Shown here piece after piece: positions 60,301 to 62,029 of a stretch of 64,000 nucleotides of DNA. Every line of letters starts with the position of its first letter. The first letter of the stretch is position 1. Origin of the DNA: Escherichia phage PinkRuby; the sequence record PP925839.1; one strand, 5' to 3'. A model generated the notes under the pieces. The model was not told the DNA's origin. It did no database searches and saw nothing but the letters and a program-made list of their open reading frames with translations. Made by a program: the position numbers and the translations under genes.

Positions 60301-61213
60301 TAATAATCAAACTGGATTACGTATTACGAGTAATGGTGATAAATCTGGTTCAAATTCAGTATTATTCAGAAATGATGGATCAGCGTTTTATATTCTTTTA
60401 ACAGATAAAAACGCAGCAGATGGAAATACGACTGCCACAGAAGGAGATTGGAATGGTAAACGTCCTTTCCAAATTAATATGACTTCTGGTGAAGTAACAT
60501 TCGGAAATAATATTAATATTTCTGGAAACGGAAGCATTACTTGGACAAAAGCCGGAGCAAACCCTAGAAATATGAGAATATTTCATGCAGGTGATGCTTC
60601 TCGTGGTAACCGTATTGAAATCGCAGATGATACTAATTATATTGCTTACTTTGAAAAAACTCCAGGTGGAGCTAACCGCTTTGTAGTTAATGGTGCTACT
60701 GTAGCTGGTGTTAATCAAATGAATTCATTTGGTATTAACATCAATAACGCGCTTGGTGGAAATAGTATAGCATTTGGTGATAATGACACGGGTATTAAGC
60801 AAAACGGCGATGGATTATTAGACATTTATGCGAATGGTGTGCAAACGTTCCGTTTCCAAAACGGTGATTTGTACTCATATAAAAATATAAATGCCCCAAA
60901 CGTTTATATTCGTTCTGATATTCGCTTAAAATCTAATTTCAAACCTATCGAAAATGCGCTTGATAAAGTTGAAAAACTTACTGGTGTCATTTATGATAAA
61001 GCTGAATACATCGGTGGAGAGGCAATTGAAACTGAAGCGGGTATTGTGGCTCAAACGTTACAAGACGTTTTACCAGAAGCTGTCCGTGAAACAGAAGACA
61101 GCAAGGGTAATAAAATACTCACTGTTTCTTCTCAAGCCCAGATTGCTCTTCTGGTTGAAGCTGTGAAAACGCTTTCTTCTCGTGTAAAAGAACTTGAATC
61201 TAAACTTATGTAA
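57350..61213 (+). CDS. 37: long tail fibre distal subunit gp37 (T2-type, C-terminal intramolecular chaperone)
   Basis: 1287 aa; N-terminus conserved; C-terminal ~100 aa begins at SDIRLK autocleavage-type motif. Confidence 0.92.
60914..61210 (+). other. gp37 C-terminal intramolecular chaperone domain (presumably auto-cleaved)
   Basis: Begins at Ser of SDIRLK, then ~98 aa helical region, as in endosialidase / T5 L-shaped fibre chaperone domains. Confidence 0.7.
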
Positions 61214-61214
61214 A

Positions 61215-61232
61215 AGAGGGCTTCGGCCCTCT
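61215..61232 (+). terminator. UUCG hairpin between genes 37 and 38
   Basis: AGAGGGC-ttcg-GCCCTCT after gene 37 stop; weak U-tract. Confidence 0.5.
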
Positions 61233-61243
61233 AAGGATTTTTA

Positions 61244-62029
61244 ATGGCAATTGTAGGTGTTCCTGGCTGGATTGGTGAATCTGCCGTGAATGAAACAGGA
61301 CAGCGTTGGATGGATGCTGCAATGAGAGCAGTCCGTGTTTCAGTTCCCGGTTGGATGAGCTCAATGGCCGGACAATCTAAAGAAGTATATTATAGCATTG
61401 GTGCTAGTAATTCTTATAATAAAGATACATTAATAAACTGGATAAAAGCACAAGGGTCCACGCCTGTTGTTATTACTATTACAGGAAATATTGTTTCTCA
61501 ATCTACTGGTGTTCCATGCTTAGATTTTCCTAGCTCATTAACTAATGCATACGTGACACTTAATATCAATTCAGGCGTGCATGTTTGGGGCCGTGGCGGG
61601 AATGGCGGAAATAACTCTGCCGGTGGAGCAGGAGGAACTGCAATAAATAATGGAATTGGAACTAGATTGCGTATTAACAACAATGGTGTTATCGCAGGAG
61701 GCGGTGGAGGCGGTGGAGGCGGATATTATTCTCCTTTTTCACAAATGAGATTAACCTTTGGCGGTGGTGGTGGGCGTCCGTTTGGTGCTGCCGGTGGGTC
61801 TGCTAATATGGAACAGGGTGCTACTGCTGGTACTATTTCTGCACCAGGTAAAGGGTCTGTCAACGGTATCTATAATGGCGGGAATGGTGGTGATGCCGGA
61901 GCCGCAGGAGGTAAATGTAATATTCGCGGTCAAGGATCAGAATATAACGGCGGGGCGGCTGGTAAAGCTGTTACTGGTAATGCTCCAACTTGGACTAAAG
62001 TTGGTACAATATACGGTTCAAGAATATAA
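61244..62029 (+). CDS. 38: gp38 receptor-binding adhesin (T2-type, glycine-rich motifs)
   Basis: 261 aa; conserved N-terminal gp37-attachment region then poly-Gly motifs separated by variable segments. Confidence 0.88.
   Translation: MAIVGVPGWIGESAVNETGQRWMDAAMRAVRVSVPGWMSSMAGQSKEVYYSIGASNSYNKDTLINWIKAQGSTPVVITITGNIVSQSTGVPCLDFPSSLTNAYVTLNINSGVHVWGRGGNGGNNSAGGAGGTAINNGIGTRLRINNNGVIAGGGGGGGGGYYSPFSQMRLTFGGGGGRPFGAAGGSANMEQGATAGTISAPGKGSVNGIYNGGNGGDAGAAGGKCNIRGQGSEYNGGAAGKAVTGNAPTWTKVGTIYGSRI
61697..61723 (+). repeat. (GGAGGCGGT)x3 glycine-codon microsatellite inside gene 38
   Basis: ggaggcggtggaggcggtggaggcgga encodes G9 within a glycine-rich motif. Confidence 0.8.

Follow-up and report, generated by a model that had tools for sequence, protein, structure and literature searches.

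The distal tip of the long tail fibre of Escherichia phage PinkRuby: a probable T2/T6/S16-type module with Tsx-type loops

Introduction

What stands at the end of the long tail fibre of Escherichia phage PinkRuby, how is it put together, and which surface protein of the host is it likely to read? The question is raised by genes 37 and 38 of this phage (sequence record PP925839.1), in a window of 64,000 nucleotides that is the whole stretch of DNA analysed here. All coordinates below are positions in this window, and all its tail-fibre open reading frames (ORFs) lie on the + strand. A preliminary description, made from the letters of the window, had seen there a T2-type receptor-recognition module, consisting of a gp37 with a cleavable C-terminal chaperone domain and a glycine-rich gp38 adhesin.

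The analysis reported here indicates that the two genes very probably encode the module at the distal tip of a Tequatrovirus long tail fibre, built on the T2/T6/S16 design and carrying Tsx-type loops. Receptor-recognition modules of the T2/T6/S16 type are known, well studied and by now textbook biology, and the locus, which cleanly illustrates the modular mosaicism known from T-even adhesins, opens no new question. Its value lies in annotation and prediction: the primary receptor (Tsx) can be called from the sequence, and a precise processing site can be predicted between Arg1188 and Ser1189 of gp37.

The C-terminal chaperone domain of gp37

gp37 (57350-61213, 1287 residues) carries the motif SDIRLK at residues 1189-1194, the first base of the motif being nucleotide 60914. 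The preliminary description had about 98 residues following the motif; counted from Ser1189, 98 residues follow, giving a fragment of 99 residues. The Pfam family Peptidase_S74 (PF13884) covers residues 1189-1246 over the full length of its profile (positions 1-58 of 58, E 1.1e-14, 54.8 bits for a cut-off of 22), and the domain, an intramolecular chaperone and autocleavage domain spanning residues 1189-1287 and the stop codon (60914-61213, +), sits at the extreme C-terminus of the protein. Alignment with homologues predicts a catalytic dyad formed by Ser1189 (60914-60916, +) and Lys1194 (60929-60931, +). Across 50 diverse aligned homologues the serine is present in 49 of 49 and the lysine in 50 of 50, and a Ser-Lys dyad mechanism has been described for this chaperone family (PMC3742443).

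A PDB sequence search with the 109-residue tail alone returned only gp37 of Salmonella phage S16 and MyRF, the other matches (E 0.13-1.7) being unrelated to phage fibres, and a profile of the 50 homologues together with a fold search was needed to reach GA-1 and endoNF. With that profile, matches were obtained to S16 gp37 (6F45_A, E 6.5e-20), the tail fibre 8JOV, the MyRF ICA 7DC3 and the GA-1 neck appendage 3GUD. The AlphaFold model of the tail, predicted as a monomer although the domain is trimeric, has a predicted local distance difference test score (pLDDT) of 87 overall and >90 within the domain. Searched with Foldseek, it retrieves the MyRF ICA 7DC3 (E 2e-6, template-modelling (TM) score 0.60), endoNF 3GW6 (E 1e-3) and GA-1 3GUD (probability 1.00). 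The preliminary description had called the sequence after the motif helical, and this holds in part: the model has one terminal helix of 26 residues and two short helices, but also four beta-strands, which makes the domain a mixed alpha/beta one.

The Pfam match, the conserved dyad, the profile and fold matches and the close relationship to T2 described below support the assignment of the gp37 tail to the endosialidase-type intramolecular chaperones (Peptidase_S74), as had been proposed, with cleavage itself predicted by analogy. Like the chaperones of K1F endoNF (3GW6), GA-1 (3GUD) and MyRF (ICA, 7DC3), the tail has an S-x4-K dyad that opens a C-terminal domain of about 100 residues on a trimeric fibre. 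It differs from them in its low identity (14-26%), in its passenger, which is a T-even fibre shaft and not a sialidase or a transcription factor, and in the fate of the new end, which after cleavage would become the docking site for a separate adhesin.

Where would the chain be cut? In S16, the last 113 residues of gp37 are removed autocatalytically at DLNVS^SDRRIKK, which exposes the docking face for gp38, and in fPS the cleavage site is DVYIR^SDGRLKI (PMC7917993). Alignment to both places the predicted cut of the PinkRuby protein at NVYIR^SDIRLKS, that is, at the Arg1188-Ser1189 bond, so that the predicted mature distal half-fibre comprises residues 1-1188 (57350-60913, +) and ends in ...NAPNVYIR. 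The tail matches that of S16 with an E-value of 4e-12. The cut sites are R^SDIRLKS in the window and S^SDRRIKK in S16, preceded by NVYIR and DLNVS respectively, and the released fragment would have 99 residues, as against 113 in S16. The T2 protein is much closer: from NGDLYSY to the C-terminus the two sequences differ at 2 positions, with the same VYIR^SD cleavage context. VYIR before the cut is common to the window, T2 and T6, and gp37 of both T2 and T6 carries the S74 domain according to Pfam. In the S16 tip structure (6F45), the model of each gp37 chain covers only 68-72 residues of a 204-residue chain sequence, which fits the loss of the chaperone. By analogy with S16 and with T2/T6, release of the domain by autoproteolysis after trimerisation is thus predicted for PinkRuby gp37.

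Could the S74 domain instead stay in the mature fibre, uncleaved or partly cleaved, with gp38 binding elsewhere? Certain S74-family proteins do need specific contexts for cleavage, which speaks for such an arrangement. Against it stand the intact dyad, a VYIR^SD context identical to that of T2, the published account of T2 and T6, in which gp37 is cleaved before gp38 caps it (PMC3157838), and the finding that in S16 it is the loss of the chaperone that gives rise to the docking face, and retention of the domain is accordingly considered very improbable.

Upstream of this domain, residues 443-657 of gp37 are homologous to residues 906-1118 of gp34 (31% identity, E 6e-18), residues 1005-1063 match gp34 residues 1062-1113, and the Pfam family Gp34_trimer also matches gp37. 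The proximal and distal half-fibres have a shaft module in common.

gp38 as the predicted adhesin of the fibre tip

gp38 (61244-62029, the last position being the final base of the stop codon) has 261 residues and is covered over its whole length by two Pfam families: Gp38_N (PF21721) on residues 1-42 (E 8e-18, 64.6 bits, cut-off 25), and GP38 (PF05268) on residues 47-261 (profile positions 1-218 of 218, E 4.5e-72, 242.9 bits, cut-off 25). Its matches in a PDB sequence search include the S16 adhesin (6F45_D, E 2e-49) and the receptor-binding domain of PP01 (9V85, E 3e-33). An AlphaFold model built with 51 homologues is of high quality (pLDDT 92.8, predicted TM score 0.84), and Foldseek aligns it with 6F45_D (E 8e-22, TM 0.80/0.84) and with PP01 9V85_C (TMt 0.87), no other fold in the PDB being found below an E-value of 1. 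The model shows the three domains of this type of adhesin: a bundle of helices at the N-terminus, then a beta-helix, and finally a polyglycine-II sandwich. All hallmarks of this adhesin family that lend themselves to testing are present, which supports the identification of gp38 as a T2/S16-type adhesin, and the same holds for the S74 chaperone family and gp37.

The N-terminal attachment domain (residues 1-46, 61244-61381, +), delimited by Gp38_N and the model, is a three-helix bundle of the T2-like subtype bearing Trp9, Trp22 and Trp37, with modelled helices at residues 10-18, 23-29 and 38-41. Trp9 and Trp22 occur in 50 of 51 homologues and Trp37 in 33 of 51. In S16 gp38, three tryptophans that sit at the apices of these helices plug into the gp37 trimer (PMC6851490). 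The remainder of the protein, residues 47-261 and the stop codon (61382-62029, +), forms the receptor-binding domain, with the beta-helix and the polyglycine-II sandwich, as defined by Pfam GP38, 6F45_D and the model.

Glycine makes up 22.9% of gp38 and 33% of residues 116-261. The preliminary description had counted four or five poly-Gly motifs separated by variable segments in a protein of 261 residues, a pattern that is borne out: six Gly-rich runs can be distinguished (GRGGNGG at 116-122, GGAGG at 127-131, nine glycines at 152-160, five at 173-177, GGNGG at 212-216 and GGAAG at 239-243). The variable positions among 103 homologues fall mainly between these runs, with entropy peaks at residues 122-128, 161-172, 183-195/205-211 and 223-236, while certain glycine columns are invariant. 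This fits the scheme published for such adhesins, in which there are five glycine-rich motifs with four hypervariable segments (HVS). HVS1 comprises residues 123-126 (61610-61621, +), the variable columns that separate the first Gly motif from the second; HVS2, or loop B, comprises residues 161-172 (YYSPFSQMRLTF, 61724-61759, +) and holds Arg169 (61748-61750). HVS3 (residues 182-211, 61787-61876, +) and HVS4 (residues 217-238, 61892-61957, +) are bounded as in the loop comparison of the next section.

The module resembles the S16 tip (PDB 6F45; Dunne et al. 2018) both in its two-protein design, with a gp37 bearing a C-terminal autocleaving chaperone, and in the make-up of gp38, with its Trp-pronged helical bundle, beta-helix and polyglycine-II sandwich. 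It differs from S16 in detail, since gp38 identity to 6F45_D is 43% over the Foldseek alignment and the loops are unrelated (0-33%): S16 binds OmpC of Salmonella, whereas the PinkRuby loops belong to the T6-like class.

A quite different role would be that of gp38 in T4, an assembly chaperone only, which is not kept in the virion and leaves the full-length C-terminus of gp37 to read the receptor. Gene 38 has the same map position as in T4, and in several database records close homologues are entered under the name 'distal long tail fiber assembly catalyst', a label carried over from T4. The proteins themselves tell otherwise: gp38 of PinkRuby has no detectable similarity to the 183-residue T4 gp38 (best BLASTP E-value 19), which is without a Pfam GP38 match, and it has the S16 adhesin fold by Foldseek. 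The C-terminus of T4 gp37 carries Collar and Phage_fiber repeats with no S74 domain, PinkRuby gp37 has S74 with no match to Collar or Phage_fiber, and its last 299 residues fail to align with the T4 gp37 tip (E 0.21). These comparisons of gp38 and of the gp37 tip exclude a chaperone-only role at the sequence level, and its probability is practically nil. The T2-type adhesin of the preliminary description is thus retained over the T4-type chaperone, the presence of gp38 in the virion being predicted by analogy. In S16, each gp37 trimer is known to bear a single gp38 at its tip (6F45), and for T2-type phages gp38 is stated to be part of the virion; from these homologues, gp38 may be expected to be a tip component of the PinkRuby virion as well.

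A possible assembly pathway

How could these two proteins form a working tip? Each step of the following scheme is inferred by homology. gp37 would be synthesised as a precursor of 1287 residues, the last 99 of which would serve as an intramolecular chaperone, nucleating trimer formation by the beta-helical shaft and checking it. In the folded trimer, the Ser1189-Lys1194 dyad would cleave the chain between Arg1188 and Ser1189 and the chaperone trimer would leave, baring a blunt tip that ends in ...NVYIR, this new C-terminus being the predicted docking face for gp38. One copy of gp38 would then dock on the gp37 tip, Trp9, Trp22 and Trp37 each filling one of three equivalent pockets. The C-terminal half of gp38 is expected to fold into the polyglycine-II sandwich, with the Gly runs as a scaffold and the hypervariable loops as the receptor-binding face, and HVS1-4 would in this way be presented to the extracellular loops of Tsx.

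Predicted receptor specificity of the loops

Which receptor these loops read can be predicted by aligning gp38 with adhesins of known specificity, as the preliminary description had proposed for Tsx, OmpA, OmpC, OmpF and FadL, and by comparing identities segment by segment (residues 1-46, HVS2, HVS3 and HVS4). For Bas39, identities are 100% over residues 1-46, 92% in HVS2 and 100% in both HVS3 and HVS4, and JK38 gives the same 92, 100 and 100% over the three loops. T6 follows with 65% over residues 1-46 and 92, 77 and 77% in HVS2, HVS3 and HVS4, while Bas43, another Tsx phage, has 98% over residues 1-46 and 50, 53 and 46% in the loops.

Adhesins directed to OmpF, FadL, OmpA or OmpC are 0-17% identical to the window in HVS2, 22-59% in HVS3 and 32-68% in HVS4. 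Listed in the same order of segments, the individual values are 98, 0, 22 and 32% for T2 (FadL/OmpF), 65, 8, 23 and 41% for Bas38 (OmpF), 100, 17, 59 and 68% for Bas45 (OmpA), 65, 13, 41 and 45% for M1 (OmpA), and 42, 0, 33 and 32% for S16. The OmpC class is represented in this comparison by S16, whose sequence was reconstructed from the PDB-search alignment; gp38 of PP01 (OmpC) stands outside it.

Over its whole length, PinkRuby gp38 differs from that of Bas39 (FriedrichMiescher) and that of JK38 only by R169K and I261V, and from that of phage Solly only by I261V, Solly also having Arg169. Bas39 depends on Tsx according to the BASEL supplementary table, the receptor of JK38 is Tsx/Kdo by randomly barcoded transposon sequencing (RB-TnSeq; bioRxiv 10.64898/2026.04.02.716166), and T6 is Tsx-dependent (PMC3157838). 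With loops of the T6-like class and two differences from Bas39 and JK38, the primary receptor of the phage is predicted to be Tsx, the nucleoside channel of E. coli and Shigella, with a high degree of confidence. In its loop set, PinkRuby gp38 is thus like T6 and the Tsx-specific class (Trojet et al. 2011), of which Bas39 and JK38 are the closest tested members. The label 'T2-type' given in the preliminary description consequently applies to the gp37 tail and to the attachment end of gp38, and not to the specificity loops, which are T6-like (Tsx) and not of the FadL/OmpF kind. The preliminary description also saw in this module the host-range determinant of the window; this is fair as far as the primary receptor is concerned, and for that receptor only, the secondary one (short tail fibre gene) being outside the scope of this work.

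Several considerations weigh against the proposed module and its receptor. For cleavage, for the stoichiometry of gp38 and for dependence on Tsx, the prediction comes from homology, and the chaperone model is a monomer of a trimeric domain whose TM scores to solved chaperone domains are moderate (0.34-0.60). A single substitution in a gp38 loop can switch the receptor, as with Q206L in RB68, from OmpF to OmpW (bioRxiv 10.64898/2026.04.02.716166), and PST, which differs from T6 by a few HVS2/3 residues (167R, 168I, 208I), gains recognition of OmpA and of Yersinia (PMC3157838); residue 169 lies within HVS2. Tsx binders also fall into more than one loop class, and because Bas43 uses Tsx at only 46-53% loop identity, loop similarity is sufficient but not necessary evidence for Tsx. 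Finally, the exact gp38 sequence is absent from the gene-position index.

Might the same architecture then serve a receptor other than Tsx alone, either another porin (OmpA, OmpF, OmpC, FadL or OmpW) or a PST-like widened range (Tsx and OmpA, or Yersinia)? The documented one-residue switch of RB68, the location of residue 169 in the same loop as changes that distinguish PST from T6, and the lack of an earlier record of the exact gp38 protein all lend some weight to this idea. On the other side, T6 gp38 has Arg169 and Bas39 and JK38 have Lys169, so that both states of this residue occur in proven Tsx binders; HVS3 and HVS4 are 100% identical to those of Bas39 and JK38; and I261V is conservative and affects the C-terminal residue, which is not part of the loops. 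At positions 167 and 168 PinkRuby gp38 has Gln and Met, as does T6, where PST has Arg and Ile, and a PST-like widened specificity was for this reason, together with the T6 state of Arg169, rejected as the leading explanation. A receptor other than Tsx alone is therefore regarded as unlikely, and Tsx is kept as the predicted primary receptor.

What remains particular to PinkRuby is the allele itself, which is new by only one residue compared with a deposited sequence. Residue 261 (codon 62024-62026) is Ile; at this position Val is found in 92 of 103 homologues and Leu in 9. That the combination of Arg169 and Ile261 would change the Tsx variants bound, or add a second receptor, has precedents in the switches of one to three residues known in RB68 (OmpF to OmpW) and PST (Tsx to Tsx and OmpA/Yersinia), and it is judged quite unlikely, more so than the alternative just discussed.

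The module as a mosaic

Taken segment by segment, the module reads as a mosaic, in which a gp37 tail and a gp38 attachment domain, both of T2 type, are combined with T6-type specificity loops. Residues 1-46 of gp38 are 97.8% identical to T2 and 65% to T6, and the beta-helix is 35% identical to T6. PinkRuby is like T2 (Riede, Drexler, Henning, 1980s) in the gp37 tail including the cleavage site, in gp38 residues 1-46, and in the intergenic hairpin and ribosome-binding site, which are identical; it is unlike T2 in HVS2, HVS3 and HVS4, T2 using FadL/OmpF, and in the rest of gp37, which in T2 has 1341 residues and a different shaft mosaic. From T6 it differs in the N-terminal attachment domain, the beta-helix and the gp37 tail, all of another subtype, and from Bas39 and JK38 in the gp37 shafts, which are largely different (48% coverage at 84%). 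N-terminal subtypes of gp38 have been reported to co-vary with C-terminal subtypes of gp37, as lock and key (Trojet et al. 2011, PMC3157838), and the gp37 tail and gp38 N-terminus of PinkRuby are both of the T2 subtype, as this rule predicts.

Traces of exchange are also seen at the DNA level. gp37 is 99.5% identical to its counterpart in Shigella phage Sf24, whose DNA is ~100% identical through gp35, gp36, gp37, the start of gene 38, and t. A patch of ~600 bp inside gene 38 (61400-62000) falls to 83-93% identity to Sf24, with 7 amino-acid changes and many synonymous ones, and is 99-100% identical to Solly, a pattern that fits a recombination patch inside gene 38 with a Solly-like donor. In the Gly-rich half of gp38, comparison with Sf24 gives a synonymous divergence (dS) of 0.48 for a non-synonymous divergence (dN) of 0.009. 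Within the allele class, strong purifying selection thus acts on the loops, and the segments termed 'hypervariable' are strongly conserved within one receptor class.

Organization and transcription of the locus

The long-tail-fibre operon of this T-even phage occupies the final 12 kb of the window, in the order 34-35-36-37-38-t. In the ORF list, gp34 lies at 51620-55489, gp35 at 55498-56613 and gp36 at 56676-57341, followed by gp37 and gp38 at the positions given above and by the holin gene t at 62061-62717; gp36, gp38 and t are named by Pfam. An exact copy of the T4-type late promoter motif TATAAATA is found at 56645-56652 (+), upstream of gene 36, and a second one at 51578, before gene 34, while a motif scan finds none from 56652 to gene 38. 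The motif occurs 18 times in the window for 8.7 expected, and it is presumably a late promoter here, as in T4. Its presence before genes 34 and 36, and its absence before gene 38, indicate that genes 36-37-38(-t) are probably expressed as a single late transcript driven from the motif at 56645. A scan for sigma-70 promoters between 56.5 and 63 kb was uninformative, with 25 sites for 24.8 expected.

Between genes 37 and 38, a scan for terminator-like structures finds a UUCG-tetraloop hairpin, AGAGGGC-TTCG-GCCCTCT (61215-61232, +, -13.4 kcal/mol), placed between the gp37 stop codon and the gp38 ribosome-binding site AAGGA (61233-61237). Its sequence is the same in T2, Sf24, Bas39, JK38 and Solly, and T6 and T4 have a hairpin of another sequence at this position, which suggests that the structure, and not the sequence, is kept. 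This hairpin may act as an mRNA stabiliser or an attenuator. Another GC-rich and very stable hairpin, with a UCCG loop, lies at 56617-56638 in the 35/36 intergenic space, and both hairpins resemble the classical intercistronic C(UUCG)G hairpins of T4.

The G+C content at 61250-62000 is 43-48%, for ~35% in the flanks, with a strongly positive GC skew, both being due to the dense GGN codons for glycine of gene 38. ORFs that overlap gene 38, such as the one at 61758-62039 (+) and several on the - strand, were dismissed as by-products of this G-rich sequence. In a search of the whole 64 kb against Rfam, no family reached its gathering score; neither tRNA genes nor a group I intron match were found, the ribonucleotide reductase ORFs (~40758-44252, - strand) included.

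Three minor observations concern the rest of the window. Its segment from 20000 to 44000 (24 kb) is ~97% identical to the best phage DNA match. Two adjacent large ORFs on the - strand (23349-25406 and 25410-27506), of 685 and 698 residues, correspond in position to two genes annotated in related genomes as Alt-like RNA polymerase ADP-ribosyltransferases. In the tail-fibre operon, residues 58-126 of gp35, the hinge protein, match the Pfam family ILEI (PF15711, E 1.5e-8), a domain named after the animal FAM3/ILEI proteins.

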